Shown here one piece after another: positions 30,236-52,628 of a DNA stretch of 64,000 nucleotides; position 1 is the stretch's first letter, and every line of letters begins with the position of its first letter. The notes under the pieces were generated by a model that had not been told where the DNA came from, made no database searches, and worked only from the letters and a program-made list of their open reading frames with translations. Origin of the DNA: a virus (lineage: Duplodnaviria; Caudoviricetes); the IMG/VR virus record IMGVR_UViG_2687453145_000002, positions 1 through 64,000 of that record; one strand, written 5' to 3'. The position numbers were made by a program, and so were the translations under genes.

Positions 30236-30253
30236 GTTTGGAACTCTATTGTG

Positions 30254-30624: not shown

Positions 30625-31035
30625 ATGACTGAAGAAAAAACACTTTTATTGCTGCCCAGTTGGTTTTTCAAAAGGCAGCTCATTGTATCGATTTGCCTCT
30701 TCGTGGCATTCCCTGTTGCAATGACCATCATTCGACCACCAACAAATGATGTACCAATGGTTAACTGGCTGATCATTGTGGTGGAATTTCTAGTGCTAGG
30801 AATGCTGTACCCATACAGCCGGTATGCTGTTCAGCGAATCATTGACTACTGGCATGGGGATGAACATGTCGTCTATAACGCGTCAATAAAGAGCTCGTTC
30901 GATCGGAAAGTTGCAAAACTGATGGTGAGCTTGGTTTGCCTGCTGGTACTGGGACCGATGTGCCTCATCGTGCTTTTGGTGAAGCGCAGGAAAAAACGAA
31001 GGGGCCAAATATCTAGGGAGCCTGCTTCTGGTTGA
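30625..31035 (+). CDS. Three-TM protein resembling pore-forming colicin/pyocin immunity proteins
   Basis: 3 TM segments with LYPYSR motif. Confidence 0.5.
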   Translation: MTEEKTLLLLPSWFFKRQLIVSICLFVAFPVAMTIIRPPTNDVPMVNWLIIVVEFLVLGMLYPYSRYAVQRIIDYWHGDEHVVYNASIKSSFDRKVAKLMVSLVCLLVLGPMCLIVLLVKRRKKRRGQISREPASG

Positions 31036-31101
31036 ATCCCCGCCGCCCCAGCGTTAGTATTGCTCAAAGATGGCCAGAGTCCTTGTGACCCTGGCCTTTT
31101 T
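31032..31101 (+). promoter_or_regulatory. Late promoter/terminator unit 1 (before holin)
   Basis: TTGAAT-17-TAGTAT, CAGCGT before -10, GGCCAG..CTGGCC-T5. Confidence 0.75.
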
Positions 31102-31151
31102 CATTTCTGGCCCGCCTCGTGCGGGCTTTGTCGTTTCTGGAGGGGCGATGC

Positions 31152-31364
31152 ATGGGGAAAGAAGAAGATCTTGCGACGGCTGCGGCTGCCGCTGGGGTGG
31201 CAAAGAGCGCACCGCCGGTGGTGGTGTCCGGCATGACGCTGGCCGGGTATTCGCTCAATGACTGGGTGCTGGCCGCCACGTTGATGTGGATAGCTGTTCA
31301 GATGGGCTGGTTTATCTGGTCGAACATCATCAAGCCGCGCCGCCAGCAGGGAGGTGCAAAATGA
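31152..31364 (+). CDS. Holin
   Basis: Small TM protein directly before the endolysin. Confidence 0.75.
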   Translation: MGKEEDLATAAAAAGVAKSAPPVVVSGMTLAGYSLNDWVLAATLMWIAVQMGWFIWSNIIKPRRQQGGAK

Positions 31365-31852
31365 ACAAGGTCCGGATTGCCATTGCCGCGCTCAGCCTGA
31401 GTGCTGCGGGCTTTGTGGGGCTCCTGAATCGGGAGGGGTTTGAGCCGACGGCTTACCCCGACCCGGTACACGGCACCAAACTCCCCACGCTCGGCTTTGG
31501 GAGCACCGAAGGGGTCAAGATGGGTGACACCATCACGCCCGTTGCTGCGGTGAACAGGAGCCTTCGGGAGGTGCGGGTGTTCGAGGACGCCCTCAAGGCA
31601 TGCATCAAGGTGCCACTCCACCAGTATGAGTTCGACGCCTATGTCGAGCTCTCCCACAACATCGGCCCCGGCGCCTTTTGCCGTTCCACCATCGTGCAGC
31701 GTCTGAATGCTGGCGACTACCCGGGCGCCTGCGAGGCGATCCTGCTGTTCAAGCGTGCTGGCAAGCAGGACTGCTCGGCGCCAGGGAACCGGGTATGCCC
31801 CGGGCTCTGGAAAGACCGGCTGCGTCTCAATGCGAAGTGCAAGGGGGCGTGA
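31361..31852 (+). CDS. SAR-type lysozyme endolysin (GH24)
   Basis: N-terminal hydrophobic SAR segment; EG...YPD...T.G.G catalytic triad; NIG.GAFC.ST. Confidence 0.9.
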   Translation: MNKVRIAIAALSLSAAGFVGLLNREGFEPTAYPDPVHGTKLPTLGFGSTEGVKMGDTITPVAAVNRSLREVRVFEDALKACIKVPLHQYEFDAYVELSHNIGPGAFCRSTIVQRLNAGDYPGACEAILLFKRAGKQDCSAPGNRVCPGLWKDRLRLNAKCKGA

Positions 31853-32406
31853 TGGAAGTGACTCCGCAGAGCAAGGTGCTGCCGTTCCTGGCTGGTGCCT
31901 TGGTGATAGCCGCCCTGGCTGGCGGTGGTGCGGCGCTCTACTGGTCCGGTCATGCTGCTGGGGAGGAGGGGGAGCGCAATACCTGGCAGGCGAAGTGGAA
32001 TGACGAGGCCGCCCGCCTCGCTACTGCCAGGACCAAGGCCGAACAGGAAGCGCGCGAGGAAGAGCAGCGCCGGCAGGCTGAAATCGATGAGGTGAGAGAC
32101 CATGCACAAGAACAGATCGCCCAAGCACAAGCTGATGCCGCTGCTGCTGGCGTTGAGTCTGGCCGGCTGCGCGAGCAAGCCCGCCGCCTGGCAGCCCGAG
32201 CAAGTCAGTGCGCCAGCCATTCCAGCACTCCCCAAGGAAGCCCGGCAGCCGAACAGCCTGCCGTGGTGCTCGCCGACCTGCTCAGCCGGGCTGACGAAAG
32301 AGCGGGTGAGCTGGCAGCAGCATATGACCGAGCTCGAGTATCAGGACTAGCTTGCGAGCTGGCCTATGACTCCCTGCGTACCGCAACCATGACACCCCGC
32401 CCATAA
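31852..32406 (+). CDS. Rz: Rz-like inner-membrane spanin (DUF2514-like)
   Basis: N-terminal TM, coiled coil, DRARVSGLACE. Confidence 0.85.
   Translation: MEVTPQSKVLPFLAGALVIAALAGGGAALYWSGHAAGEEGERNTWQAKWNDEAARLATARTKAEQEAREEEQRRQAEIDEVRDHAQEQIAQAQADAAAAGVESGRLREQARRLAARASQCASHSSTPQGSPAAEQPAVVLADLLSRADERAGELAAAYDRARVSGLACELAYDSLRTATMTPRP
32102..32350 (+). CDS. Rz1: Rz1-like outer-membrane spanin embedded in Rz
   Basis: Lipobox LAGC, Pro-rich, in an alternative frame inside Rz. Confidence 0.8.
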   Translation: MHKNRSPKHKLMPLLLALSLAGCASKPAAWQPEQVSAPAIPALPKEARQPNSLPWCSPTCSAGLTKERVSWQQHMTELEYQD

Positions 32407-32440
32407 CGGCGGGGTTTGTTTTTCTGGGGAAGGGGAGGAG

Positions 32441-32629
32441 GTGATGCAGATGAATTGGAACAGTGAAGTGGTAAGCGGTATCGATGTGACTGGGGTTATC
32501 ACCCGTGTGGAGCACTACGATGGAGCCGAGGCAGTGGTTGTCCTTTCCTCTGGAGTATCTGTGGTGGTAGCTGCAGCCCACAAGCCGGTACCCGGCGATA
32601 TCATCGTTGAAGGTGAGCTATCTATCTAA
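32441..32629 (+). CDS. Small hypothetical protein
   Basis: GGAGG RBS; abuts terS. Confidence 0.6.
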   Translation: MMQMNWNSEVVSGIDVTGVITRVEHYDGAEAVVVLSSGVSVVVAAAHKPVPGDIIVEGELSI

Positions 32630-33505
32630 ATGGCAAAGACCGACTGGGCACAGCTCAATGCAGAGTTCCTGCAGGAGCATGAAGCGACAGGCATCAGTGC
32701 GAAAGACTGGTGCGACAGCCGCGGCCTGAACTACAACTCGGCGCGTCGCTATTTGAAATCTCGGGGGCAATCCGCTGCGCAACCTGACAAATCTCGCGTA
32801 GCTGCGCAATCTGCGCATTCCGAAGTGCGCAAAACTGCGCAGTCTGCGCAAAGTGCGCAAGCCAAAGGGAATGAGGGCAAGGCCAAAGGGGGAGAGGGAA
32901 GAGGTGGAAGGTCCTCCGCATCCCCACACACCTCGGCAGACTCAGCCCAGAACCCGAAAACAAACGGCCGGGACAGCAGCGGGCGTTTCACCGAGGGCAA
33001 CCCTGGCAACCCCAACCCGGTCACGAAGTGGAAGCCAGGCGACCGGCCGGCACTGACCCACGGTGGTTACGCCAAGTTCCTCGATGCGGAGGAGCTGTTC
33101 GACCAGGCCCGCGAGCTGCAGCTGCGTGATGAGCTGGAGTTCACTCGGGCGCGCGTTATCTCCGTCACCCAATTGCTCAAGGGGCTGCAGCAGGACCTAG
33201 TCACGGCCACCGAGATGACCGACCGGATAGCGCTCTACGACAAGATCCTGAAAGCCGAACAGGCCCTCGACCGCAACATCCAGCGGATCGAGTCTATCGA
33301 GCGCACCCTGAGCGCCCTGATGGTTGATGCCGTTAACGTTCCCAAGATAGAGGAGGACACCCGCCGCATCCGGGCGGCAACTCGCAAGCTGACTGCTGAG
33401 GCCGACCGACTCGAGAAAGATGGCGGCAGCGAGGCTACGCCGGTGAGCGAGATGGTTTCCGAGCTCCACGACATGGGTACAGGGGGACTGATGAGTGGCA
33501 GCTGA
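32630..33505 (+). CDS. terS: Terminase small subunit
   Basis: N-terminal DW...HTH, GRF..GN and ALTHGGYA motifs; position. Confidence 0.8.
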   Translation: MAKTDWAQLNAEFLQEHEATGISAKDWCDSRGLNYNSARRYLKSRGQSAAQPDKSRVAAQSAHSEVRKTAQSAQSAQAKGNEGKAKGGEGRGGRSSASPHTSADSAQNPKTNGRDSSGRFTEGNPGNPNPVTKWKPGDRPALTHGGYAKFLDAEELFDQARELQLRDELEFTRARVISVTQLLKGLQQDLVTATEMTDRIALYDKILKAEQALDRNIQRIESIERTLSALMVDAVNVPKIEEDTRRIRAATRKLTAEADRLEKDGGSEATPVSEMVSELHDMGTGGLMSGS

Positions 33506-33544
33506 ATCTGGTAGCATGATGAATCCAATGCTTGGGAGCATCTT

Positions 33545-34210
33545 ATGGAAGCGGATAAAGATTTAGAGCAGCAATATCGAAAGAATCTGATGATTGTAGC
33601 TAGTGTGGTTTTTGTTTATTCCATAGCTGGCGGACAGATGGGAAATGAACTAAGTCTATTAAGCGCAAAACTTACCTTCAGTCACCCAGTATTGCTTGAA
33701 TATGCAATGGTGATAATAATGTGCTTTTTCTGGTGGCGCCATAGACAAGTTTCATACAATATTAGGCGTGATTTTGTAAAGAAAGTATATGGCAATCTTA
33801 TTATACCTAAATGGGTTTACAGGAGATTGATGCGTGAAGGGACTAAGCATATCGAACCTATATATTACGAAGGCCCTGATAGGGTGGAGATACATGCGCC
33901 TTTAAGGCCATTTTGGGATGTTCCTGAGGAGGTGGGTATCTTGTGGTTGTCAGGAGGGGTGCGTTCTGCTGATATTATTGCATATTCTTTGTATGAAAAT
34001 GAATCGACAGACAACCTGCTTAGTGATATAAAAATTAAGATGTCTTGGTTGATGAGATTCTGCTTATGTATGGCATATACACGCTCATTTATCATGATTA
34101 GTTATAAAAAGACTGAGTTTGGCGATGGCGTATTACCTACGATATTTTTTGCTATTGCCTTGGGTGGCTGGGTTATAAATCATTTTCAGCTTATTCATAT
34201 AGCTATGTAG
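33545..34210 (+). CDS. Low-GC membrane protein moron between terS and terL
   Basis: TM segments, AT-rich, own terminator at 34232-34253. Confidence 0.7.
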   Translation: MEADKDLEQQYRKNLMIVASVVFVYSIAGGQMGNELSLLSAKLTFSHPVLLEYAMVIIMCFFWWRHRQVSYNIRRDFVKKVYGNLIIPKWVYRRLMREGTKHIEPIYYEGPDRVEIHAPLRPFWDVPEEVGILWLSGGVRSADIIAYSLYENESTDNLLSDIKIKMSWLMRFCLCMAYTRSFIMISYKKTEFGDGVLPTIFFAIALGGWVINHFQLIHIAM

Positions 34211-34231
34211 CTTGGCCATATTCATATAACT

Positions 34232-34253
34232 AACCCGCTTCGGCGGGTTTTTT
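34232..34253 (+). terminator. Intrinsic terminator
   Basis: AACCCGC-TTCG-GCGGGTT followed by T run. Confidence 0.85.
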
Positions 34254-34270
34254 ATTGCCTAAGATCCCCC

Positions 34271-35968
34271 ATGACCGAATTCGACATCTCCGCAATGACT
34301 GAGCAGGAGCAGATGGCTTACATCCGCTCGAAGCTCAGCGATAAGTGGTGGCGGATGAACAACCTCTACATGATCGAGAACGAACAGGGCCAGCTGGTGC
34401 GCTTTCGGTTGCGCCCGGCGCAGGATCTGCTGTTCAAGACCATGTGGTGGCTGAACATCATCCTCAAGGCACGACAGCTTGGGTTCTCCACCGCCATCGA
34501 CATCTATCTGCTGGACGAGGCGCTGTTCAACAAGAACATCAAGTGCGGGATCATCGCCCAGGACCTGACGGCTGCCGGCGAGATCTACCGCACCAAGATT
34601 GAAGTCCCGTTCGATAACCTGCCGGGCTGGCTCAAGGCCCAGTTCAAGGTGGTGACCCGGCGGGGCGGGGCGAATGGCGGACACATCCTGTTCCGGCATG
34701 GCTCCAGCATCCAGGTGGCTACCTCGTTCCGGTCCGGTACCGTCCAGCGCCTGCATGTCTCCGAGCACGGGAAGATCTGCGCCAAGTATCCCGAGAAGGC
34801 CAAGGAGGTGCGTACCGGTACCCTGCAGGCAATCCACCCGGGCGCCGTGGCCTTCATCGAATCAACAGCGGAAGGCGTGGGCGGCGACTTCCATGCCATG
34901 AGCATGAAGTCCCTCGAGCTGGCCCGGGCCTCCGGTGAGCTCAGCCAGCTCGACTGGAAGTTCCACTTCTTCGCCTGGTGGCAGGACCCCAAGTATCGTG
35001 CCGACGTGCCGGCATCCGGCGTGGTGATGAGCAAGACCCAGGCGGAGTATTTCGCCGCGGTCGAGAAGGCGATGGGTTGCACCATTACCGACGAGCAGCG
35101 GCAGTGGTACGTGCTGAAAGAGTCCACTCTGGGCGCCGAGATGAAGCAAGAGTTCCCCAGCACGCCGCTGGAGGCCTTCCTGACCTCTGGGCGCCGGGTG
35201 TTCGACCCCATCCATACCATGGATGCAGAGGGCGATTGCATGGCCCCGCTCATCGTCTACGACATCGACCCGGTCACTGGCAGGCGTGAGAAGGCCCGCA
35301 AGCCAGAGAAGCTGGACGAGCGTGGCCAGCGCTCCCTCGAGAACATGTTGCTGGTCTGGGAGTTGCCAGACCCCGACGAGGATTACGCCATCGGCGCCGA
35401 CGTGGCGGAAGGGCTGGAGCACGGTGACCGTTCAAGCCTCGATGTGACTGCCAAGAGCGACGGACGGCAGGTGGCCCACTGGTTCGGGCACCTCGATCCC
35501 GGGTTGTTTGCCCAGCTGCTGGCCCACGTCGGCCGCTTCTATGGTACTGCAGAGCATGGCCCGGCCTACATCGGCCCGGAGCGCAACAACCACGGTCACG
35601 CCGTGCTGCTCAAGCTCCGTGAAATCTACCCGACCCGGCGGATCTACACCCAGGAGCACCTCGACCGGGACCGCGACGACGAGACGCCACGCCTCGGCTG
35701 GCTCACCACCCGGCAGTCCAAGCCGATCTTGGTTGATGGCCTCAAGGCCCTGCTGCGTGCTGGGCAGTCCGGGATCCGCTGGATAGGCACCATTCACGAG
35801 GCAACCACCTACGTCTACGACAAGAGCGGCAGCATGAACGCCCAGGACGGCTGCTACGACGACCAGCTGATGAGCTACATGATTGCCCAAGAGATGCGCG
35901 CCCGGATGCCGGCCCGCATCGTCAAATCCGAAACCTCCCGCAAACCCAAGCACTGGATGGCCAACTGA
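34271..35968 (+). CDS. terL: Terminase large subunit
   Basis: ILKARQLGFST Walker A, LHVSE Walker B, ESTAEG, IGADVAEG, DD nuclease motifs. Confidence 0.93.
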   Translation: MTEFDISAMTEQEQMAYIRSKLSDKWWRMNNLYMIENEQGQLVRFRLRPAQDLLFKTMWWLNIILKARQLGFSTAIDIYLLDEALFNKNIKCGIIAQDLTAAGEIYRTKIEVPFDNLPGWLKAQFKVVTRRGGANGGHILFRHGSSIQVATSFRSGTVQRLHVSEHGKICAKYPEKAKEVRTGTLQAIHPGAVAFIESTAEGVGGDFHAMSMKSLELARASGELSQLDWKFHFFAWWQDPKYRADVPASGVVMSKTQAEYFAAVEKAMGCTITDEQRQWYVLKESTLGAEMKQEFPSTPLEAFLTSGRRVFDPIHTMDAEGDCMAPLIVYDIDPVTGRREKARKPEKLDERGQRSLENMLLVWELPDPDEDYAIGADVAEGLEHGDRSSLDVTAKSDGRQVAHWFGHLDPGLFAQLLAHVGRFYGTAEHGPAYIGPERNNHGHAVLLKLREIYPTRRIYTQEHLDRDRDDETPRLGWLTTRQSKPILVDGLKALLRAGQSGIRWIGTIHEATTYVYDKSGSMNAQDGCYDDQLMSYMIAQEMRARMPARIVKSETSRKPKHWMAN

Positions 35969-38094
35969 TGATCAACGCCCAACCCAAGGCCCCTGAGAAA
36001 GGTGGCCTCGATACCCCGCGCCTGCTCAAACTGATGAGCGATATCAACGGCCAGCCTGACTGGCGCTCACTTGCCAATCGCGCCTGCGCCTACTACGACA
36101 ACGATCAACTGCCACCTGAGGTGGTCAAGGTGCTCAAGGAGCGGGGCCAACCCATCACTATCCACAACCTCATTGCCCCGACTATTGATGGCGTGCTGGG
36201 GATGGAGGCCAAGAGCCGCACCGATCTGATGGTGATCGCCGATGACCATGACGATGAGCTCGAGCAGCTGGCCGAGGCCGTCAATGCCGAATACGCCGAC
36301 ATGTGCCGCCTGGGCGGACTGGACCGCGCCCGGGGCGAGGCTTACGGCGGCCAGATCAAGACCGGTGTGGGCTGGGTGGAGGTGTGCCGGCGCGATGACC
36401 CGTTCGGCCCGCGCTACAAATTCAGCAACGTCCATCGTGATGAGGTCTATTGGGACTGGCACAGCCGAGAGCCGGACCTGAGCGACTGCCGCTGGCTGAT
36501 GCGTCGCCGCTGGGTCGATCTGGATGAGGCCAAGACCATGTTCCCGAGCAAGGCTCAAGCGTTGGAGTGGGGCGTGAATGACTGGGCGGGGGTTGTCAGC
36601 TTGAGCGCCGTAGAGGGGCTCGACCCCAACCTGGTCAGCGCTTACGACGAATGGAGCCAGTTCAGTGGTAAGGAGGTGGAGTGGTGCAGCCGTGAGCGGG
36701 ATCGGGTGTTGCTGCAGGTGGTCTACTACCGCACCTATACCATGCGGCAGGTGCTGATGCTCGATTCTGGCCGGGCGCTGGAGTACGACAAGACCAATCA
36801 GTTGCACCTGGCCGCGCTCGCCATGGGCCGGGCCAGGCTGGAACGCCGCCCGGTGGCCGTGATCCGGGAGTCCTGGTTTGTCGGCCCCCATCATCTGGTT
36901 GATCGCCCCTGTACAGCTCCTCACAACATGTATCCGCTGGTGCCGTTCTGGGGATACCGGAAAGACCGCACCGGTGAGCCATACGGGCTGATTGCTCGGG
37001 CCATGCCGGCGCAAGACGAGGTGAACCTGCGGCGAATCAAGCTGACGTTCCTGCTGCAGGCCAAGCGCGTCATCATGGACAAGGACGCCACCAACATGAG
37101 CCGGGATCAGGTTCTTGAGCAGGTGGAGCGCCCGGATGGATATATCGAGCTCAACCCTGACCGCGCCAACAAGACCAGCGTGAGCGATGCCTTCAAGGTG
37201 GAGCAGGACTTCAACGTGGCGGCCCAGCAGTTCCAGGTGATGCAGGACTCGGTGAAGCTGATCCAGGACACCATGGGGGTTTATGCCGCCTTCCTGGGCC
37301 AGGGCTCCACCGGGCAGTCCGGCGTGGCTATCAGCAACCTGGTGGAGCAGGGGGCGACCACGCTTTCGGAGATCAACGACAACTACCGGATGGGCTGTCA
37401 GCAGGTGGGTCAGCTGGCGTTGGCCTACCTGCTGGAAGACATGGCCGGCAAGCGCAACTACAAGGTGACCGTGAACCGCGATGACCCCCGCCGCCGCAAG
37501 GCCGTGGTGATCAACGTGGAGCAGGAGGATGGCAAGCTGACCAATGATGTGACCCGGCTGCGGGCTCATATCGCCCTAGCGCCGATCCAGCAGACAGCCG
37601 CCTACAAACAGCAACTGGCCGAGCGGATGACCCAGGCCATGTCGCAACTTCCGCCAGAGGCGGCAGGTGCCTGCTTTGACCTGCTGGTCGAGCTGATGGA
37701 TGTACCGCGTAAGGCTGAGTTCGTGGAGCGGATCCGCAATGCCCTGAACATCCCGAAAGACCCGGACGAGATGAGCGACGAGGAACGCGCAGCCGCCGAG
37801 CAGCAAGCCCAGCAGGCCCAGATGCAGCAGGAGCTGGCCATGCGCGAGATGCAGGCCAAGCTGGCCGAGCTGGAGGGCAAAGCCGCCAAGTGGCAGGCAG
37901 AGGCTCAGCGCATCGCCAAGCTGACGGACTCCATCCGGTTCGAGGATGCCCTCAAGCAGGCCCAGACAGGCAAGACATTGCAGGAGATGGAGCAGTTGGC
38001 AGCCCAGCAGCAGGCGATGCAGACAGAGCAGGCAGCCCTGCAGGCGCAGCTGTTGGACACCATCCAGCAGCAGATCGACGCCATCGCGCTCTGA
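35968..38094 (+). CDS. Portal protein (P22/933W-like with C-terminal coiled-coil barrel)
   Basis: Follows terL; N.I.P.ID.VLG, YG....A...QDE.N, SGVAI; Gln-rich C-terminus. Confidence 0.88.
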   Translation: MINAQPKAPEKGGLDTPRLLKLMSDINGQPDWRSLANRACAYYDNDQLPPEVVKVLKERGQPITIHNLIAPTIDGVLGMEAKSRTDLMVIADDHDDELEQLAEAVNAEYADMCRLGGLDRARGEAYGGQIKTGVGWVEVCRRDDPFGPRYKFSNVHRDEVYWDWHSREPDLSDCRWLMRRRWVDLDEAKTMFPSKAQALEWGVNDWAGVVSLSAVEGLDPNLVSAYDEWSQFSGKEVEWCSRERDRVLLQVVYYRTYTMRQVLMLDSGRALEYDKTNQLHLAALAMGRARLERRPVAVIRESWFVGPHHLVDRPCTAPHNMYPLVPFWGYRKDRTGEPYGLIARAMPAQDEVNLRRIKLTFLLQAKRVIMDKDATNMSRDQVLEQVERPDGYIELNPDRANKTSVSDAFKVEQDFNVAAQQFQVMQDSVKLIQDTMGVYAAFLGQGSTGQSGVAISNLVEQGATTLSEINDNYRMGCQQVGQLALAYLLEDMAGKRNYKVTVNRDDPRRRKAVVINVEQEDGKLTNDVTRLRAHIALAPIQQTAAYKQQLAERMTQAMSQLPPEAAGACFDLLVELMDVPRKAEFVERIRNALNIPKDPDEMSDEERAAAEQQAQQAQMQQELAMREMQAKLAELEGKAAKWQAEAQRIAKLTDSIRFEDALKQAQTGKTLQEMEQLAAQQQAMQTEQAALQAQLLDTIQQQIDAIAL

Positions 38095-38097
38095 TAG

Positions 38098-38165
38098 TTG
38101 CTTTCCTGACCTGCCAGCGTTACGATTTCCCCAACATGGCCCAGTCTGTCGAGATTGGGCCTTTT
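38098..38165 (+). promoter_or_regulatory. Late promoter/terminator unit 2 (before scaffold/capsid)
   Basis: TTGCTT-17-TACGAT, CAGCGT before -10, GGCCCAGTCT..AGATTGGGCC-T4. Confidence 0.75.
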
Positions 38166-38250
38166 CTTTGGTTGAGTTGTCAATCAGTAGCGTAACTGAC
38201 TCCCTTTGAGTATGATTTGTGGTGAGTCTAATGACTCCCGAACTTGTTTT

Positions 38251-38304
38251 AAGCCCGCCCTCCCGCGGGCTTTTTTTATGGACCAGCCTCGAGCTGGTTT
38301 TTTT
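38251..38304 (+). terminator. Two tandem intrinsic terminators
   Basis: AAGCCCGC..GCGGGC-T7 and ACCAGC..GCTGG-T7. Confidence 0.75.
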
Positions 38305-38394
38305 GTGCCCAGCTCCAGCCGGAGAGGGCTTTCACCGAGAGCCTTCCCCCGCTTGGGCAGCGATACCACCCACTGAAAACCCACGAGGACAACC

Positions 38395-39321
38395 ATGGAT
38401 AAGAACATCGACAACCTGAACGGCACTGAGAGCCTGGACGAACTGGAAGCCATGCTGGAAGCGATCGAGCGTGAGCCCGATAGCGAGCTGGATGATGGCA
38501 CTGGCACCGAGCAAACGGACGTACAACCCGCGCCGTCGGCGGGCGAGGTGGCAGCCGGTAACGAACAGGGCAGCACCGAGCAGGGCGGTGAAGGGGCCAC
38601 GGAACCTGAGAAGGTGATCCTGGCCAAGAGCGGTCAACACACCATCCCGTATGAAGTGCTGGAGCAGGCGCGCAATGAAGCCAAGCAACTGCGTGAGCAG
38701 CTGGCTCAGTCGCAGCAGGCCCAAGCCGAGCGGGACAAGCTGCAGGCGCTGATGGAGAAGCACGGGATCAACCCCGACGTGGACCCCGACGATATCAGCC
38801 AGGAGGAGCTCGAGCAGTTGGCGCAGGACTACCCGGATCTCGGCAAGTCCATCGCCGCCATTGCCCGCAAGCTCCAAAAGCTGGAGCCCCAGGTCGCCCC
38901 GCAGCAGGTTCAACCCACCCTCAACCCGGTACAGGCCGCACTGCAGGCGGTACCTGATCTGGTGAGCTGGCGGGAAAAGGACCAGGACCGTTTCGACTTC
39001 GCCATCATCGTCGATGAGAAGCTCCAGGCTGATCCCGCGTGGCAAGGCAAGTCGCTGGATGAGCGATTCGCAGAGGCGGCGCGCCGCACCAAGCTGGCCT
39101 TTGGTGATGAGGTCATCCCTCCCGCCAAGGTACCCGGCAAGGGTGCAGAAAAGCCCGCTGATTTCATCCCGTCCAGCCCTTCGGCACTCGGTCAGACCCA
39201 TCATGCCGCTCCCACTGGAGTGGAGCGCTTTGGCGCCATGTCTCAGACCGAGCTTATCGGCGAGATGGGCGCCATGACGGACGCCCAAATGGAGGCGCTG
39301 CTGGAGCAGGCCGGGTACTAA
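38395..39321 (+). CDS. Scaffolding protein
   Basis: Acidic, coiled coil, IPY..L motif; between portal and capsid. Confidence 0.75.
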   Translation: MDKNIDNLNGTESLDELEAMLEAIEREPDSELDDGTGTEQTDVQPAPSAGEVAAGNEQGSTEQGGEGATEPEKVILAKSGQHTIPYEVLEQARNEAKQLREQLAQSQQAQAERDKLQALMEKHGINPDVDPDDISQEELEQLAQDYPDLGKSIAAIARKLQKLEPQVAPQQVQPTLNPVQAALQAVPDLVSWREKDQDRFDFAIIVDEKLQADPAWQGKSLDERFAEAARRTKLAFGDEVIPPAKVPGKGAEKPADFIPSSPSALGQTHHAAPTGVERFGAMSQTELIGEMGAMTDAQMEALLEQAGY

Positions 39322-39392
39322 CCCACCACCCATTTCAATAAGCCAACCCCGACCACTGTGTCGGGGTTTTTGTTTTCATGTAGGAGAGGACC

Positions 39393-40610: not shown

Positions 40611-40675
40611 GCCGCTGACCCATGGGGCTTCACGGCCCCATCACATCACTATCTGACCAGACAAGGAGCCATATC

Positions 40676-41065: not shown

Positions 41066-41131
41066 GGCTGCCGATCACTGTCCGCCCGGCCCTGTGCCGG
41101 GCTTTTTCGTTTCTGAATAGGAGTCATCGCC

Positions 41132-41569: not shown

Positions 41570-41570
41570 C

Positions 41571-42152: not shown

Positions 42153-42167
42153 TCCCAAGGACACATC

Positions 42168-42845
42168 ATGGCTACCGTGACCGTTGCAACCATCCTCAAG
42201 CGGGTAAACACCTTGCTTGTCGATCCTACTTTTACCCGCTGGCCCAAGCAGGAGCTGCTGGACTACTACAACGACGCGACCAAGGCGATCGTGCTGGTGC
42301 GCCCTGACGCACACACCAAGAACACCGAGTTCACCTGTGCGGCTGGTACCAAGCAGACTCTGCCGGCCGACGCTCTTCGCCTCATTGAGGTGCTGCGGAA
42401 TGCTAACGGCAAGGTGATCCGCTACGTGGTGCGCAAGGCGCTGGATGACAGCTACCCCGACTGGCACTCCAGCAACACCGCGACCACGGTGGACAACTAC
42501 ACCTACGAGGAGCGGGATCCGAAGACCTTCTATCTGCATCCAGGCCCGGCCGCGGCGGTGAAAGTGGATGTGATCTATTCGGTTGCCCCTCAGTCCAAGG
42601 CGTTGGCCGAAGTGGAGAGTGCTCAGAGCCCGGCGCTGGCTGACCTGGATGACATCTACATCAACCCGATCATCGACTTTATGCTCTACCGCTGCTTCTC
42701 CAAGGATGCGGAGTATTCGGCCAACTCCAATCGGGCTGCTGGTCACTACAACGCCTTCTTGCAACAGCTCGGAGAGAAAACCCAAGTAGACGCGAGCATG
42801 GAAGCGCGCCAGCAGGCCAGTTTTGGCCGGGTAACCGGTCAGTAA
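42168..42845 (+). CDS. Adaptor/tail tubular protein (DUF6682-like)
   Basis: RW...ELL.Y.N.A...RPDA, LYR.FSKDAE. Confidence 0.65.
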   Translation: MATVTVATILKRVNTLLVDPTFTRWPKQELLDYYNDATKAIVLVRPDAHTKNTEFTCAAGTKQTLPADALRLIEVLRNANGKVIRYVVRKALDDSYPDWHSSNTATTVDNYTYEERDPKTFYLHPGPAAAVKVDVIYSVAPQSKALAEVESAQSPALADLDDIYINPIIDFMLYRCFSKDAEYSANSNRAAGHYNAFLQQLGEKTQVDASMEARQQASFGRVTGQ

Positions 42846-42855
42846 GGGGGCGTAG

Positions 42856-44490: not shown

Positions 44491-44798
44491 TGTTTATAGA
44501 CCTCAATTTGAAATCACCAGATCATGAAACAATGTTTTCCGCATTGGTTGCGGCAGGCTTTATAAACGGCGAGCCTGGGCATTTGTACCATCCAGCTGCA
44601 TCGCTTGTGCTGCTTCCTTTTGGCATGGTGACAAGAAAAACAGGAATGATGATAGATGGCCCGCTAGGAATCCAGATCGAGGAGGTGCAGCCGGTGCCAG
44701 GATATCATGCCAACGTGCGAACCACTGACGCCGCCCTTGCCGCCGCGCTGGCTCCGGTGACGGTGGTGGTCGAATCGCCCCAGTATGTCTGGGCATAG
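44490..44798 (+). CDS. Tail fibre-associated protein
   Basis: Coupled to the fibre gene; GYHANVR motif. Confidence 0.6.
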   Translation: MFIDLNLKSPDHETMFSALVAAGFINGEPGHLYHPAASLVLLPFGMVTRKTGMMIDGPLGIQIEEVQPVPGYHANVRTTDAALAAALAPVTVVVESPQYVWA

Positions 44799-44818
44799 TT
44801 GTGGCTTGGTAACATCGC

Positions 44819-44887
44819 TTGCCTCCTAACGCTGCTGGCGTTAGGATTTACCCATCATGGCCCGCTCTATTCTGAGTGGGCCTTTTT
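44819..44887 (+). promoter_or_regulatory. Late promoter/terminator unit 3 (before tail/ejection genes)
   Basis: TTGCCT-17-TAGGAT, TGGCGT before -10, GGCCCGCTC..GAGTGGGCC-T5. Confidence 0.75.
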
Positions 44888-44911
44888 GTTTTCTGCCTGC
44901 CGAGATCTCCC

Positions 44912-46516: not shown

Positions 46517-49317
46517 TGGCAAAACCAGCATATCGAGCAGGGCGTGACCAGACCGCTACTTCTGAAAACGTTGAACTGCTGACCGGCCAGCGCGGCGACA
46601 AGCTGGATAAGGCAGTTACCTTTCGAGAGCTGAACGCGCTTGGTTTGGCCACGCTGCGTCAAGGCCCTGGCGGTATCTATATTCCCGGCAAAAATCCAGA
46701 CCTCGTTGAGACTGGCGTGTACGACAAGCCGCACGCGCCGGTCAACGTGCAGGCCAGCGGGGCGTTTCATACCGTGCTGGTTGATTGGGATGGGCCGACG
46801 TACCGCGGGCATTCCCATGCAGAGGTGTGGCGTGCAGAGACCGATAGCCTGCCTGCCGCAACGCTGGTTGGCACCACTATCGCCAATATGTTCTCTGACG
46901 CCATCGGCAAGGGGGCCAAGTTTTATTATTGGGTCAGGTTCGTCAATGGCAAGGATGACCGAGGCCCGTTCCATGGCGAGCGTGGCGTTGTTGCAGAGAC
47001 CAGCCGTGATGTGCAGGATATCCTTGACGAGCTGCAGGGGAAAATTGAAAGCAGCCACCTGGCGCAGGAGTTGCTCAAACCTATCCTAGATGTTCCGCAA
47101 CTGTCAGTTATTGTCAACGAGACCAAGGCCAATCTGGCCGCGCTGGATGCGCGAGAGAAGCAGATTAATGATCTGCTGAATCATGCCCAGGGTGCGCTAG
47201 GCGATAACTATATCAACGTCACGCTGATTCAGGAGCAGCTGCGCCAGCTGATCAATGGTTACCAAACTGACTTCGAGGACTTCCGCGACGCTGTGTTTGC
47301 TGTTGATCCGAGCACGGGCGAGATCAACATGGAGGCGGTTAATGCCGTCAGATCAGAGCTTGGCGCGCTGATCACTCAAGTCAGCCAGCACCTCGATGCA
47401 GTCGAGGCCATCGTCAAGACCTGTGTCACCAGAGCCGAGATCAGCGCCGACCTGGAGAAAATCACCTCCATCGAGCAGCAGATCGACGGCATTAATGGGA
47501 AGCTGACCCAGACGGCCACCAAGTCTGAGGTTACCGCCGTTGGCTCGCAGGTGACGCAAGTCGGTCAGGAGCTTGATGTTGTAAAGGGGGCGTTGACGCA
47601 GAAGGCGGCCAAGACAGAAGTGGATGCCCAAGGCCAGCGCCTTACCGTCGCCGAGCAGCAGATCAGCGCCAACACCACTGCAAATTCCGCTACCGCCCAG
47701 CGCATCGCTCAACTCAAGAGCGAGCTGCAGCTGGCAGATCAGACCATCAAGAGCTCCATCACCGAATTGGCCCAGAGCGTAGCCAGCGATACGCAAGCAC
47801 TGGCTCAGAAAATGAGTTCCATGGAAGTCGCCATGGACGGCAACACCGCGGCCATCAGCGAGCTGCAACAGGCCATCAGCGGAGACGGGCAGTCGCTGGC
47901 CAGCAAGTTTGAAAACATGAGCGCCAGCGTTGACCTGGCTGGCGACGCCGCGATCGGTGCCACCTTGGCTGGAGCTGACGAGAGTGACCGCCAGCGCAAG
48001 GCCACAGGCAAGATCCGCCGTGAGCAGAAGGTACTGAGCGACCAGCAGCAGGCGATGGCAACCACCATTGAGCAGCTGGATGCAGAGTTTCAGGCTGAGT
48101 CTGCCGTTCTGCGCGGGCAGATCATCAATGAACAGACGGTACGAGCTACAGAAACAGGCGCATTGGCGCAGCGGGTAGGCACGGTAGAAGCCGAGTTCAA
48201 AGCTGCCGACAAAGCATTGGGTGCCAGTATCTCCGAGGTGGCAAAGACTAGCGCTGATGCTGATGGTGCTCTGGCAAATCAGATCCAGCAGGTGACCGCA
48301 GAGTTCAAGGAGGGGGATACCGCTCTATCAGGGCAGATCACCAGCGAGTCAGAGGCGAGGGCTAACGCTGATGGGGCGCTTGGCAAGCGTATCGACACTG
48401 TGACCGCCAAGACTGGCGAGCTGGAGTCAGCAGTGCAGACCCAAAGCCAAGCCATCGCAGACCTGGAAAATGGTGCTCAGGCCATGTGGGCCACCAAGGT
48501 GCAGGCTGGTGACATCACAGCCGGCATTGGCTTGGTGGCAAAGGATGACGGCACCAGCCAGGTGGCAATCTCTGCCAGTCAGGTTTTTGTATTCAACCCG
48601 AACAGCTCAACACCGATGGCACCACTATTCGCTATCGACAATGGCCAGGCCGTCATTGCCGAGGCCATCATCCGCAAGGCAACCATCCAGATCATCCAGT
48701 CCGAGAAGATCACGGCGGACTACATCAAAGCAGGGGTCAGCATGTCGGCGCCTGCGATCTCGGGCGGTTCCATCGATATGGGCAATGCCTTCCTGTCTGG
48801 TGGGGCAGCAGGGTTCGGTAAAGGCGGGCCTTATGCCAGTTGGGGATTCGGCTGGTACACGATGATCTATGCGGACGGCAGCATCTATACCAACCGACTT
48901 CGTGCAGAAGGCGGTTATGTGAAGAACATGACCATGAACAACTGCACGATTGAGCAGGATTGTGAAGTGAAGGGGACTGTCTATGCACAGAAAATTGTGG
49001 GTGACATTGTCAGGACGTATGCCTTGAATCCAGCCTCCCCAGTACAGTTACCTGCGATGCCATTTGCCAGAAAATGTACTTTTATGCTGACCGTTTCAAG
49101 TGGGTCATCAACTACGACAGCGCGAGTTTACATCAATGGCGTAGAAAGGGGGTCCTTGACCGCGAGAGATTACGGTATCGGCCAGGGATCGACAATGAAC
49201 AAGAATTTTGAGTTTTTGCTGGCAGCCAACCAAGCGTACACGATCAGCTATGACCGAGATAATAAAGATTACGCCTATGCTTCGAGCTCCTGTTTATCGA
49301 TCGTGTGTTTGGCATGA
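46516..49317 (+). CDS. Tail/host-specificity protein (FnIII + long coiled coil + DUF1983-like)
   Basis: YYWVRFVN FnIII-like; heptad repeats; AGIGL...F.I..GQ..I..A.I. Confidence 0.75.
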   Translation: MAKPAYRAGRDQTATSENVELLTGQRGDKLDKAVTFRELNALGLATLRQGPGGIYIPGKNPDLVETGVYDKPHAPVNVQASGAFHTVLVDWDGPTYRGHSHAEVWRAETDSLPAATLVGTTIANMFSDAIGKGAKFYYWVRFVNGKDDRGPFHGERGVVAETSRDVQDILDELQGKIESSHLAQELLKPILDVPQLSVIVNETKANLAALDAREKQINDLLNHAQGALGDNYINVTLIQEQLRQLINGYQTDFEDFRDAVFAVDPSTGEINMEAVNAVRSELGALITQVSQHLDAVEAIVKTCVTRAEISADLEKITSIEQQIDGINGKLTQTATKSEVTAVGSQVTQVGQELDVVKGALTQKAAKTEVDAQGQRLTVAEQQISANTTANSATAQRIAQLKSELQLADQTIKSSITELAQSVASDTQALAQKMSSMEVAMDGNTAAISELQQAISGDGQSLASKFENMSASVDLAGDAAIGATLAGADESDRQRKATGKIRREQKVLSDQQQAMATTIEQLDAEFQAESAVLRGQIINEQTVRATETGALAQRVGTVEAEFKAADKALGASISEVAKTSADADGALANQIQQVTAEFKEGDTALSGQITSESEARANADGALGKRIDTVTAKTGELESAVQTQSQAIADLENGAQAMWATKVQAGDITAGIGLVAKDDGTSQVAISASQVFVFNPNSSTPMAPLFAIDNGQAVIAEAIIRKATIQIIQSEKITADYIKAGVSMSAPAISGGSIDMGNAFLSGGAAGFGKGGPYASWGFGWYTMIYADGSIYTNRLRAEGGYVKNMTMNNCTIEQDCEVKGTVYAQKIVGDIVRTYALNPASPVQLPAMPFARKCTFMLTVSSGSSTTTARVYINGVERGSLTARDYGIGQGSTMNKNFEFLLAANQAYTISYDRDNKDYAYASSSCLSIVCLA

Positions 49318-49685
49318 TGAGCATGGTTCGAAACCCTATCACCCGTATTTCAACGGACACAGGTAACCCTGGCCTATCTGTCGAACTGCAAGACGCCATC
49401 CGAAACCGGATGGCGTTTTTGTTTGTGCGTGGCGATGACGGGTTTGTGCTCAAGCCACAGGCAGAAGATGGCGTGATCGGTGTCCTGGTCTGGGTGGGGT
49501 GGGGAGATGGCAGGGCGCCTGAGCGGCACTTGCCGGAAGTGAAGCGCCTGGCGCGCCTGATAGGGGCACGCTGGCTGCGCTTCCACTCGGCGCGTAAGGG
49601 GTGGCTCAAGGTTGCGCCAAGAATGGGATGGGTCCGTCAGCCGGATGATGCTGATGGGCTCTATGTGTTTCAGATCAACCTATGA
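49314..49685 (+). CDS. Hypothetical protein (GNAT-like fold possible)
   Basis: LAR.IGA..LRF.S.RKGW motif. Confidence 0.6.
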   Translation: MMSMVRNPITRISTDTGNPGLSVELQDAIRNRMAFLFVRGDDGFVLKPQAEDGVIGVLVWVGWGDGRAPERHLPEVKRLARLIGARWLRFHSARKGWLKVAPRMGWVRQPDDADGLYVFQINL

Positions 49686-49695
49686 GGTGTAGGTG

Positions 49696-50373
49696 ATGGG
49701 GAAGGGTGGCTCGAACGAAATTCAGGAGACCGAGGCTCAGAAGGCTGCGGCCAGTGTGGCCATGGAGCAGTGGGATCTCTACAAGAACGACCTGCAGCAG
49801 TACGAGGACTATTTCATCGAGAAGGTGGATGACCTCAACGGTGAGGGGAAGTACGACAAACTGGCAGGCACGGCAGCGCTTGGCGCGGCAAAAACCTTTG
49901 GCGACGCCAGAAAGGGGCAGGCCGATGCCATGGCTGCCAGCGGCATCGACCCGACCAGCGGGCGGTACCAGGAGACGATGGTCGGGCTTGAGACGGATCA
50001 GGCCCTGAGCCAGACGGACACGGCCAATCGAGCGCAGTCCAGCCAGCAAGACAGGCATGTGGCTGGCCTCAAGGATGTGGTGAGCATTGGCGCCGGGCAG
50101 AAAGCGGAGTCCCTGGCGGGTATGGGGGATGTGGCCACGACCAGCCTGCGCAAGTCGGTGAGTGATGCGCAGATCTCGTTCCAGAATCGACAGGCCACGG
50201 CTGGCATGGTGGGTACCGTGCTGGGGGCGGGGGCGTCGTATGGACTGGCCAGCCTGAAAGCGCCGACGGTTACCAGCAACAGTGATGTTGCATCACATCT
50301 CGATAGCACTAAGACGCTCGCTGATAACCGCGTCTATAACCCCAACGCAAAAACGTATTTGGGAGGTAGGTAA
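49696..50373 (+). CDS. Probable internal virion/ejection protein
   Basis: MGKGGS start, Ala/Gln-rich, Gly-rich hydrophobic segment. Confidence 0.6.
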   Translation: MGKGGSNEIQETEAQKAAASVAMEQWDLYKNDLQQYEDYFIEKVDDLNGEGKYDKLAGTAALGAAKTFGDARKGQADAMAASGIDPTSGRYQETMVGLETDQALSQTDTANRAQSSQQDRHVAGLKDVVSIGAGQKAESLAGMGDVATTSLRKSVSDAQISFQNRQATAGMVGTVLGAGASYGLASLKAPTVTSNSDVASHLDSTKTLADNRVYNPNAKTYLGGR

Positions 50374-50375
50374 CC

Positions 50376-50756
50376 ATGGGTTACGCCGCAGACACTTACG
50401 CCAAAATCACCCGCGAGCAATACCAGGACTGGAAGACTCGCTTCTATCCCAAGCAGCAGGAGCTGATGGATCTGGCCACCAACGGCGAGCTGCTCAGGGA
50501 ACAACTGGGCCGGGTGGGCGAGAACAACACCAACGCCTTGCGCTCTGCTCAGCAGGCCACGGCCAATCGCAATGCACGCATGGGGGTCAACACTGACAGC
50601 AACGCCGGCGACAACAGCCAGGGTCTGCGCATGGCCCTGATGACGGCGGGGACCGAGAACGGGCTGCGTGAGCAGGAGCAAGCTCGTCAGATGGGGATCC
50701 TGACGGGGGCTGATGCTGGACTGCGTGAAGCAATCAAGACAGGGGGTAAGGTCTGA
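50376..50756 (+). CDS. Probable internal virion protein
   Basis: GGAGG RBS; operon context. Confidence 0.6.
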   Translation: MGYAADTYAKITREQYQDWKTRFYPKQQELMDLATNGELLREQLGRVGENNTNALRSAQQATANRNARMGVNTDSNAGDNSQGLRMALMTAGTENGLREQEQARQMGILTGADAGLREAIKTGGKV

Positions 50757-50995
50757 TGGGGTACGGGATTCTGGATATTGGCGCCCAAACGCGCCAGCAG
50801 GGTATGGCTGGCCTGCGTGATGCGGCTAACCGTGAAAACGAAATAGAGATGGGGAACAAGCAACTCAAGGCGCAGAAGAAGCAGGGCACCATGAGCGCAA
50901 TCGGCACCGGGGCGGCAGTCGGCTTTTCGGTCGGTGGCCCGGTCGGGGCGGCAGTGGGCGCGGGTGTGGGCTTTCTGGCAAGCAGCTTATTTTGA
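50756..50995 (+). CDS. Glycine-zipper ejection protein
   Basis: GTGAAVG..VGGPVGAAVGAGVG. Confidence 0.65.
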   Translation: MGYGILDIGAQTRQQGMAGLRDAANRENEIEMGNKQLKAQKKQGTMSAIGTGAAVGFSVGGPVGAAVGAGVGFLASSLF

Positions 50996-51006
50996 GGAGA
51001 GTGGGG

Positions 51007-52518
51007 ATGAGCGTATCGGGATTGGCGGAAGGTTTTCTGGCTGGCTTCAACACCATGGACCGTTATCAACGTGGCCAGAAAGAAGATGAGCGGATGGATA
51101 AGGCCATGGGCCTGCGAGATGCCATGTGGCAGAACGAGCAGGAGCGGCAGAAAGTGGCAGATGAGCGCTACCAGAGCGAGCTGGCGTACCGCGAGGGGCG
51201 CGATAAGCTGGCGGATGCCAGGTATGACAAGCAGGTCACCCTCACCGAGCGGCAGATGAAGGAGTCAGAGGCGCGAGCCGGTGCTGCTGAGCGGCGAGCG
51301 GCGGCACAGGAAGCTCGGCAGCAGCAGGAGTATGAGTGGCAAAAGACACTGCGGGACAAGCAGCTTTTCCAGCAGGAGAACCTGCCGATTATCCAGTCTG
51401 GCTGGCAGGCGGTGGCCGAGGGCAAAGACCCTGGCCAGCAGTTCTGGAACGTGGTGCGGGATCCGCGGGCTGGCTCCTTTAACCCGGAGCGCTACCTGCA
51501 GCAGGATTATGCCGAGGCTGGCAAGACCTTTGTTACCCATGCTGGCAATCTGATGCGCCAGGCTCAGGAAGGAAAGCTCGACCCGACCACACCCGAGGGG
51601 CACGCTGCCGTCAATAACCCTGACTTCATCAAGGCGGCCGGCACCCTCTATCAGGATGAGGTCAACAAAGGCGTGGGCGACATCGATCCGGAAAGCGGCA
51701 AGACCATCACCGGCAAGCAGTTGAACAACATCATGATCACCCCGGACGGGCGTGGCGTGGTATTGGGAGTGGAAGTCACCTATGACGACGGCAGCAAGGC
51801 CGTGCGTCCGGTCACCAACAACCGCACTTCTGCGCCCGATGATCACCCCAAGGTCATCCCCATCAACGACTTCTTGAAGCCTGCCTACCAGCGGGCGGCC
51901 CTGGCCAAGCACATGATCGGTAACGCCGACCAGCTGCGCGCATCGCTTGGCCTGACGGCAGGCCCGGATCAGGCGGGATACAAGAAGGCTGTTGCTGACC
52001 TTGAGAAGCAGCACGGCCAGAACCGCGCCCGGATCTCCTCCAGCAATGCGGAGGATAAAGACCTGCAGCTCGATGCGCTGGATACCCAGCTTGAACAGAG
52101 CAAGGAGGCGCTGGCTGACACCTACGGCCTGACCACAAAAACGGATGAGCCAAAGCAGGAGGCGCCACTCAAGGCGTGGACCGGGGGCGATCCCAAGCGC
52201 CTGCAGTTTATCAAGGAGGCCAACCAACATGGCAAACTGAGCAGTCTGCTGGATTCCCCGGCCAAGATGAACACGGCCTTTGAGCTTTGGCGCCAAGATG
52301 TTGCGAAAGAGGAGGCAGCCAAGCAAGCGGCGGCATCTGCTGAGAAGGTGCGCAACATGGAAGGAGGTAAAGATCAGCCGCATAACTACCGCGCAGCAGA
52401 AGAGGCGGCCGTGAATGCGGTTATTGCATCATTTGCAAATGGACAGCCGACGCTCAACAAGGCACCAGATGGTGCGGCAGCCTATCAGGCGATGAGCCTG
52501 GCCCAGGCTCGCCGATAG
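51007..52518 (+). CDS. Coiled-coil ejection protein
   Basis: GLAEGFLAGF start, charged coiled coil. Confidence 0.65.
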   Translation: MSVSGLAEGFLAGFNTMDRYQRGQKEDERMDKAMGLRDAMWQNEQERQKVADERYQSELAYREGRDKLADARYDKQVTLTERQMKESEARAGAAERRAAAQEARQQQEYEWQKTLRDKQLFQQENLPIIQSGWQAVAEGKDPGQQFWNVVRDPRAGSFNPERYLQQDYAEAGKTFVTHAGNLMRQAQEGKLDPTTPEGHAAVNNPDFIKAAGTLYQDEVNKGVGDIDPESGKTITGKQLNNIMITPDGRGVVLGVEVTYDDGSKAVRPVTNNRTSAPDDHPKVIPINDFLKPAYQRAALAKHMIGNADQLRASLGLTAGPDQAGYKKAVADLEKQHGQNRARISSSNAEDKDLQLDALDTQLEQSKEALADTYGLTTKTDEPKQEAPLKAWTGGDPKRLQFIKEANQHGKLSSLLDSPAKMNTAFELWRQDVAKEEAAKQAAASAEKVRNMEGGKDQPHNYRAAEEAAVNAVIASFANGQPTLNKAPDGAAAYQAMSLAQARR

Positions 52519-52628
52519 TTGCCTTTCACCTACCCCAGCGTTAGCATCTCTCCATCGTCGATCAGTCTGCATGCTGATCGCCCCATCTCAAAAGCCCCAA
52601 ACGGTTCGCCGCTCGGGGCTTTTCTTTT
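52519..52628 (+). promoter_or_regulatory. Late promoter/terminator unit 4 (before giant gene)
   Basis: TTGCCT-17-TAGCAT, CAGCGT before -10, CGATCAG..CTGATCG hairpin, then AAAAGCCCC..GGGGCTTTT. Confidence 0.7.

Follow-up and report, generated by a model that had tools for sequence, protein, structure and literature searches.

The 64,000-nucleotide stretch analysed here (the window; positions 1 to 64,000 of IMG/VR virus record IMGVR_UViG_2687453145_000002) comes from an Aeromonas prophage and contains four cassettes, each about 70 nucleotides (nt) from the promoter -35 to a terminator, that stand in front of successive late gene modules. It also encodes, at 25195-25896, a protein of 233 amino acids (aa) that is, by profile comparison, a remote relative of the Q antiterminator of phage lambda. 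We consider it probable that this system carries out processive antitermination of the lambda Q type, loaded at four cassettes about 7 kb apart, and the lambda Q relative most likely operates all four switches. Q antitermination is otherwise familiar from three protein families, with one loading site per phage. The layout with four loading sites is repeated in at least four phage records, in contrast to the single switch of lambda.

Two related prophages, A and B, lie in the 116-kb provirus record (G000) to which the window belongs, and among named phages the closest is Aeromonas phage phiARM81mr (an 8.5-kb query matches it at 92% identity along 71% of the query). Judged by its sequence, each of the four units appears to have all four elements of a canonical Q circuit, namely a promoter, a conserved spacer motif, a -10-like pause element and a terminator. 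In a 26-copy alignment, with counts taken over 37 distinct copies, the upstream half of the layout is TTG(A/C)NT, a 17-bp spacer ending in (C)CAGCGT, and TA(G/C)NAT; the downstream half is five mostly pyrimidine bases, the hexamer (C/A)AWSAT, and a GGCC-type sequence with which a hairpin begins at about +6. The four cassettes and their parts are as follows.

31032..31137, + strand: cassette 1, before the holin gene; -35 at 31032-37, CCAGCGT at 31048-54, -10 TAGTAT at 31055-60, -35-like TTGCTC at 31060-65, -10-like AAAGAT at 31066-71, predicted +1 at 31067, hairpin at 31072-96, T-run at 31097-101, second terminator at 31109-37
38098..38169, + strand: cassette 2, directly behind the portal stop codon; -35 at 38098-103, CCAGCGT at 38114-20, -10 TACGAT at 38121-26, -10-like CAACAT at 38132-37, predicted +1 at 38133, hairpin at 38138-61, T-run from 38162
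44819..44892, + strand: cassette 3, before the internal-virion/tail module; -35 at 44819-24, CTGGCGT at 44835-41, -10 TAGGAT at 44842-47, -10-like CATCAT at 44853-58, predicted +1 at 44854, hairpin at 44859-82, T-run at 44883-87
52519..52628, + strand: cassette 4, before the giant gene; -35 at 52519-24, CCAGCGT at 52535-41, -10 TAGCAT at 52542-47, -10-like CATCGT at 52553-58, predicted +1 at 52554, hairpin without a T-run at 52559-80, terminator stem at 52594-619, T-run at 52620-28

An initial annotation of this DNA had placed four promoter/terminator units at 31032, 38098, 44819 and 52519, and all four are present there. As it described, (CA/TG)GCGT lies directly before the -10 (CAGCGT in units 1, 2 and 4, TGGCGT in unit 3), the hairpin starts 9 nt past the -10 in all four, and in units 1-3 it takes the form ATGGCC...GGCC-TTTT(T), with a T-run behind it. 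The description of the first hairpin of unit 4 as a terminator has to be given up: that hairpin, which reads GTCGATCAG...CTGATCG, has no T-run, and the terminator of unit 4 is a separate hairpin further on, at 52594-52628. One feature absent from that annotation is the conserved -10-like NANNNT hexamer, 5 nt past the promoter -10. Another -10-like hexamer, CAGTCT at +10..+15, was considered as well and dropped, since the hexamer with the invariant A(+1) and T(+5), together with the lambda alignment, gives the better fit. A consensus promoter scan lists none of the four cassette promoters, because they score 8/12 and the cut-off is 9.

The combined motif is specific to the cassettes. The pattern TTGNNT-N13-GCGTTANNAT has four exact matches in the window and one further match with a single mismatch, at 15841; the chance expectation with up to one mismatch is 0.21, and five or more matches occur in 0 of 100 shuffles. 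The 10-mer GCGTTANNAT by itself is found at eight sites in the 116-kb record and four in phiARM81mr, all on the + strand and all at cassettes, and at none outside cassettes in either the 116-kb record or the 46 kb of phiARM81mr. Seven of the record's eight sites match the full pattern from the -35 through the 10-mer, and a reversed-pattern control gives zero. A motif scan of related prophages, proposed earlier as a check, recovers the same four-element set in prophage B and in phiARM81mr.

Base conservation was counted in 37 distinct copies picked only by CGTTANNAT, a TTG at the -35 distance, and the hairpin. Two positions that this selection does not impose, A at +1 and T at +5, are each invariant (37/37); the A is position 2 of the hexamer, 7 nt past the -10, and is the predicted start, and the T is hexamer position 6. 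A at +4 is present in 33/37 and G at +7 in 36/37, while the spacer bases C, C, A and G at -19..-16 are found in 24, 31, 32 and 34 of the 37 elements. Among background matches to CGTTANNAT in the same loci, 0 of 34 have a TTG at the -35 distance. The elements look like sigma70 promoters of the form TTG-N16-(A/G)CGTTANNAT, with a conserved spacer element that is the putative site of Q contact.

Covariation of the hairpin was examined in a stem-anchored alignment of 38 distinct transcripts out of 49 found, five chance hits and six site-4-type copies without a T-run having been left out. Standard pairs fill 92.4% of the 380 cells, versus 72.7 +/- 1.5% after shuffling (0/500 reach the observed value). 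Eight of the ten stem pairs vary on both sides, and pairing drops to 25-55% when the partner is shifted by 1-3 columns. On this covariation, the cassette hairpin is real and under selection.

The candidate regulator is encoded by the following gene.

25195..25896, + strand: Q-like antiterminator gene; 233 aa, TIGR02642 / PF27659, DnaJ-type double CxxCxGxG zinc ribbon

Its product matches TIGR02642 with 268 bits, and TIGR02642 / PF27659 is an uncharacterised family. When a 28-member family profile was searched against the PDB with hmmsearch, lambda Q was matched in 7UBM chain Q (E 2.2e-7), 4MO1 (4.5e-4) and 7UBJ (7.3e-4); the two stretches matched in 7UBM pair the family N-terminus with Q 3-78, and the zinc ribbon plus C-terminus with Q 104-203. 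An hhalign comparison with lambda Q (NC_001416 translation) gives 95.4%, E 1.7e-8, over 178 columns, spanning family residues 4-231 and Q residues 2-203 of 207. Four cysteines (C161, C164, C177 and C180) are invariant in the 28 sequences and align with the CxxC pairs of lambda Q, in a Cys4 ribbon that is shorter than lambda's. In the sequence alignment, family residues 5-75 correspond to lambda Q 3-78, with the common motif E..(K/R)(F/L)xSPK; lambda Q residues 1-44 are reported to form a torus at the RNA exit channel (PMC9388147). In ESM-Atlas neighbour clusters, PF27659 is mixed with PF03589 in 12-24% of members. Judged by these profile alignments, the 25195 product is a remote, full-length homologue of lambda Q, and the TIGR02642/PF27659 family likely functions as a fourth, lambda-Q-related branch of antiterminators.

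The gene also lies where a lambdoid Q gene is found, following ninB and a small open reading frame (ORF) that resembles an endonuclease gene. The order ninB ... Q-like gene, cassette 1, lysis genes is common to the window, phiARM81mr and L010, a distant locus described below. In phiARM81mr, the homologue p41 ends only 53 bp before unit 1; in the window the corresponding place holds an island that is absent from phiARM81mr.

25958..31035: 5.1-kb cargo island between the Q-like gene and cassette 1, with a 117-aa ORF, an RCC1-repeat protein gene (26376-28379, - strand), UmuC/UmuD-like genes (28539-30235, - strand) and a 158-aa membrane-like ORF

Since the gap between Q gene and cassette 1 ranges across relatives from those 53 bp to about 6 kb, this place looks like an insertion hot spot.

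How closely does the arrangement resemble the Q/pR'/tR' system of lambda (PF03589; PDB 4MO1, 7UBJ-7UBN)? The protein shows homology along nearly all of its length and has a Cys4 zinc ribbon, the Q gene lies behind nin genes, the conserved element is in the -35/-10 spacer, a -10-like pause hexamer follows the -10 (AAAGAT here, AACGAT in lambda), a terminator lies downstream, and later terminators occur within the late operon. Lambda pR' reads TTGACT-17-TAAATT-TGACTC-AACGATGG and unit 1 reads TTGAAT-17-TAGTAT-TGCTC-AAAGATGG; a MAFFT alignment of lambda TCAACGATGG with unit 1 TCAAAGATGG is 9/10 identical across the pause element. Lambda pR' and unit 1 are also alike in having a -35-like TTG that starts at the last T of the -10, the position to which sigma region 4 moves in the loading complex of lambda Q. 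The differences are that lambda has one cassette rather than four, that its gap from -10 to pause is 6 nt instead of the 5 nt found here, that the zinc ribbon here is much shorter and DnaJ-like, and that the Q gene here is often 1-6 kb from cassette 1, with cargo genes between. The terminator here is about 35 nt from the start, whereas the lambda terminator lies about 190 nt from it. Finally, the lambda Q-binding element (QBE) spans 13 bp (PMC9388147), versus a spacer motif of about 7 bp in the cassettes.

Two other systems invite comparison. The Q21 family, with BrrG of the Bartonella gene transfer agent, likewise combines an antiterminator, a promoter that carries a binding site, a terminator and a NANNNT pause element; by its published description this Q pause element closely follows the promoter -10 and has a conserved A and T, and in the Bartonella agent it lies 5 bp past the -10 (bioRxiv 10.1101/2024.11.20.624540). 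The protein there, however, belongs to another fold family (Q21-like), and a single target promoter is described. AlpA of Pseudomonas aeruginosa is the closest multi-target precedent that we found: one antiterminator serves more than one promoter through an element between -35 and -10, its targets being alpB and PA0807, and one terminator begins 26 bp past the start site (PMC7969949). AlpA is an unrelated small protein, however, and acts at two separate chromosomal operons rather than at serial cassettes of one 32-kb late operon; the 25195 product has no match to Phage_AlpA or a similar Pfam family, and the PDB profile search returned no AlpA chain. In the open-access literature searched, no paper names the TIGR02642/PF27659 family or describes several Q cassettes in one late operon.

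Cassettes and family members tend to occur together. Four cassettes each are present in prophage A, prophage B, phiARM81mr and record G008, and of 14 Aeromonas-type loci 12 have cassettes near the family member, the other two (L013 and L016) being too short to judge. The family members that adjoin cassettes are 100-68% identical to the 25195 product in the Aeromonas loci, 45% in L026, whose record has three cassettes, and 31% in L010; some loci have two cassettes within 10 kb. L010 is a low-GC metagenomic phage with the order ninB-ninG-Q-insert-cassette-lysis-terminase-portal-gene-cassette, and thus with two cassettes; the PHROG families that its terminase and portal match best are different ones. 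Counted over whole records, the full pattern occurs 3, 2, 2 and 3 times in G001-G004 and 0 times in a spurious record, with a reversed-pattern control of 0 throughout. Locus L028 has no cassette within 10 kb of its Q-like gene and three elsewhere in the record. G008 has no family gene because the record begins 2 kb before the first of its four cassettes, so that the gene is cut off.

The association also appears when the search starts from the DNA. A scan of IMG/VR contigs with 14 specified bases gave, among the 80 loci listed, about 39 true cassettes, the rest being generic promoters, and among the matches listed at least eight contigs carry 2-3 cassettes. The family is encoded by three of five cassette contigs found from the DNA motif alone, versus none of five chance-hit contigs; the two cassette contigs without it are G008 and G009. 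Four candidate family loci (L009, L024, L025 and L041) were rejected as spurious zinc-finger or weak matches, and searches with P0126, P0127, P0129 and P0130 gave no usable new locus. The initial annotation had assigned one Q-like protein, that of the 25195 gene, to four pR'-like units, and the computational tests all agree with this assignment (homology, gene position, four-part units, and co-occurrence down to 31% identity).

Prophage B (G000 64001-116165, beyond the window) has a Q-like gene of its own at G000 85425-86123, 84% identical, and its cassette core 10-mers are at 90283, 96638, 103371 and 112034. Because prophages A and B have a common core motif, either Q could act on the late genes of the other.

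The gene content of the window agrees with the four late modules that had been placed behind the four units. Downstream of unit 1 are holin, endolysin, Rz, TerS, TerL and portal genes; downstream of unit 2, a phrog_479 protein, the major head protein, virion proteins and a 544-aa tail protein; downstream of unit 3, an internal virion protein, a 933-aa tail fibre and others; and downstream of unit 4, a giant protein of 3.6 thousand aa. The listed ORF start of the giant gene, 52571, would overlap the terminator, and the true start is likely the ATG at 52649.

52649..63502, + strand: giant virion-associated protein gene; likely true start ATG 52649, behind GAGGA

The cassettes adjoin the stop codon of the preceding module directly, and the distance from one to the next is about 6.4-8.9 kb, at module boundaries.

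Prophage A: 7066, 6721 and 7700 bp between successive cassettes
Prophage B: 6355, 6733 and 8663 bp between successive cassettes
phiARM81mr: 6355, 8920 and 8726 bp between successive cassettes
G008: 6888, 7906 and 6625 bp between successive cassettes

Further terminators within the modules had also been predicted, and our scan finds sense-strand ones at 32394, 34232, 38251, 38280, 39345 and 41084.

32394..32425, + strand: internal terminator after the Rz-like gene (terminator scan)
34232..34259, + strand: internal terminator before TerL (terminator scan)
38251..38310, + strand: two more intrinsic terminators in the gap from cassette 2 to the following gene (start 38395), with stems at 38251-72 and 38280-300
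39345..39378, + strand: internal terminator before the major head gene (terminator scan)
41084..41112, + strand: internal terminator after the gene for a 147-aa virion protein (terminator scan)

Another strong sense-strand terminator lies at 49390. With at least nine sense-strand terminators in the 31-45 kb region, late transcription must resist terminators.

The course of events that we favour is the following, in which we infer promoter activity, the pause, the Q contact and read-through from the architecture just described. The 233-aa protein would be expressed from the end of the early rightward operon; as a divergent member of the lambda-Q lineage, it would keep the N-terminal torus segment and a short DnaJ-like four-cysteine ribbon. 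Each cassette would provide a sigma70-type promoter, probably firing constantly, with transcription predicted to start at the invariant A, 7 nt past the -10. Sigma would then hold the polymerase at the (C/A)AWSAT hexamer (-1..+5), with about 15-16 nt of RNA made and the 3' arm of the hairpin still to be transcribed. When Q is lacking, transcription would end about 35 nt from the start, or about 70 nt from it at cassette 4. When Q is present, it would bind (C)CAGCGT, which lies just before the -10, and engage the paused complex by loading onto it, the RNA would thread through the torus, and the Q-modified polymerase would ignore the cassette terminator along with many later terminators of the late operon. 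Because a cassette lies directly behind the stop codon of the preceding module, it could both stop unmodified polymerases, such as those coming from cargo genes (in phiARM81mr, for instance, the retron-type reverse transcriptase gene before cassette 3), and launch Q-modified ones.

Several observations weigh against this account. The 25195 product has no match at E <= 0.01 to PF03589 (Antiterm), PF06530 (Q21) or PF06323 (Q82); it takes profiles to see the homology to lambda Q, and the alignment is poor across the middle third of the protein. Lambda Q reads the QBE with a helix-turn-helix body. The Aeromonas subfamily is without about 12 residues after the zinc ribbon that lambda Q and a 260-aa subfamily have, so that its recognition of DNA may differ from that of lambda Q. 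On the DNA side, the motif conserved in the spacer covers no more than about 7 bp, immediately next to the -10, and only site-1-type cassettes show a clear -35-like TTG beside the pause hexamer. The 24 public runs with related sequence are all matched at contig level, mostly come from wastewater metagenomes, and reach at most 0.29 of the sampled words.

Two records also break the association between protein and cassette. L023 (Pectobacterium), the most divergent family member at 23% identity, has no cassette; downstream of its gene, at L023 10800-10990, there are four ATTCGCA-type direct repeats, then GCGTTACACT, and no promoter-proximal terminator. It may be that this subfamily uses these elements as another target site. 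Conversely, G009, rated 100% complete, has one cassette and neither a family member nor a PF03589 gene. Its lone cassette, at 10778-10817 on the - strand (L165 1501-1540), lies between an integrase gene (L165 1574-2815, - strand) and the anti-repressor gene Ant (L165 3-683, - strand), and G009 and G008 come from the same source genome. The G009 cassette may be eavesdropping on the late switch of its neighbour.

Why would a phage use four loading sites? One conceivable answer, speculative and in our view rather unlikely, is a relay. The modified polymerase might not last over the 32-kb late region, or cargo might break up the operon, and Q would therefore be re-loaded about every 7 kb at 70-nt modules. 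The 5' hairpin, fixed in place and retained even where it does not terminate, would take part in loading, and the module would be portable, copied by other elements as a means of listening in. Under such a relay, the lone cassette before the anti-repressor gene of a co-resident prophage could allow the late switch of one phage to induce another.

In one alternative, cassette 1 alone is a working Q-loading site, and the others would be mainly terminator insulators at module joints, or copies spread by mosaic recombination, with promoters that add little. Lambda-type Q complexes are reported to read through terminators over thousands of bp, so that one site could suffice (PMC9388147), the -35-like TTG is clear only at site-1-type cassettes, and the cassettes coincide exactly with module boundaries, the places at which one expects recombination joints. 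A bare terminator, however, needs no promoter, 17-bp spacer or pause hexamer. Moreover, the TTG, CGTTA..AT, A(+1) and T(+5) are invariant also in the site-2, -3 and -4 copies of phages in which spacers and stems have diverged, and a second full cassette persists in L010, whose terminase and portal belong to other families. We therefore regard a single working site as improbable.

We think it quite improbable that the hairpin at +6..+30 is itself the recognition element, in a nascent-RNA antitermination like that of N/boxB or HK022 put, with the spacer motif a mere promoter feature. The position of the hairpin is fixed, it is kept in cassette 4 despite having no T-run there, and G(+6), G(+7), C(+8) and C(+9) are conserved beyond what pairing needs. 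But the stems are wholly different between site types and in distant phages such as L010 (GGCCCAGTCT/AGATTGGGCC, GGCGATC/GGTCGCC and GGCCGAA/TTCGGCC), and the loops vary in size and sequence, which is unlike a sequence-specific RNA site. In three of the four site types the hairpin is an ordinary terminator, the site-4-type copies L032 and L039 have weak hairpins, no Rfam family is matched at gathering thresholds in 22000-64000, and the adjacent protein is homologous to lambda Q, which is loaded on DNA.

Phages P2 and Mu have four late promoters with poor -35 regions, under the activators Ogr and C respectively, and Ogr is a small zinc-finger regulator. Could the Cys4 zinc-finger protein here be such an activator, with the terminators bypassed in some other way or serving merely to attenuate? 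Four dispersed late units with a common upstream or spacer motif do follow the pattern of activator-controlled phages. A TTG -35, a 17-bp spacer and TAnnAT are already in place, however, and should make an activator needless. P2 and Mu are not known to have promoter-proximal terminators or pause elements, and such parts would be purposeless here under an activator; many strong terminators lie within the operon; and the protein aligns with lambda Q over nearly its full length in profile comparison, torus segment included. Activation of this kind is therefore very improbable. Least probable of all is that the four short terminated RNAs are the main products and serve the lysogen as regulatory small RNAs, a role reported for the short pR' transcript in Stx phages (PMC7547250): constitutive-looking promoters with terminators would give abundant RNAs of about 35 nt whose 5' parts are conserved, but hairpin and U tail leave only about 5 unpaired nt, with little room to pair with a target, and the stems vary freely by compensatory change, although such a role could coexist with antitermination by Q.

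Antitermination loaded by a Q relative at serial cassettes opens questions about the lifetime of a Q-modified polymerase and the minimal working Q cassette (about 70 nt here), and about whether intra-operon loading sites can adjust gene dosage or protect late genes against the transcription of cargo. Prophage annotation stands to gain as well: TIGR02642/PF27659 genes are now labelled hypothetical, and the cassettes mark late transcription units.

A few further features of the window and its relatives deserve mention. Behind cassette 2, the region 38170-38395 holds the two extra terminators listed above and no gene, and phiARM81mr has the 111-aa gene p50 there, so the slot is variable. In phiARM81mr, a retron-type reverse transcriptase gene and three small genes lie just upstream of cassette 3 (L008 22972-25049), and the window is without this insert. 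In the related provirus record that contains L028, a 9-bp unit, ATGTCACTT, is repeated about ten times in tandem at L028 4544-4663.

The left part of the window, 1-12166, is a lambdoid early region.

2084-5461, - strand: Dam-like methylase, RecT and PDDEXK exonuclease genes
8882-9493, - strand: CI-like helix-turn-helix repressor gene
10936-11697: O-like replication protein gene

It is followed, at 12300-22955, by a large cargo island within the early-right operon, through which the prophage carries an oxidative-stress gene set.

14190-15053, - strand: D12-class adenine methyltransferase gene
19013-19327, - strand: HNH protein gene
19420-20973: catalase gene
21071-21634: ankyrin-repeat protein gene
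21537-22166: Cu/Zn superoxide dismutase gene

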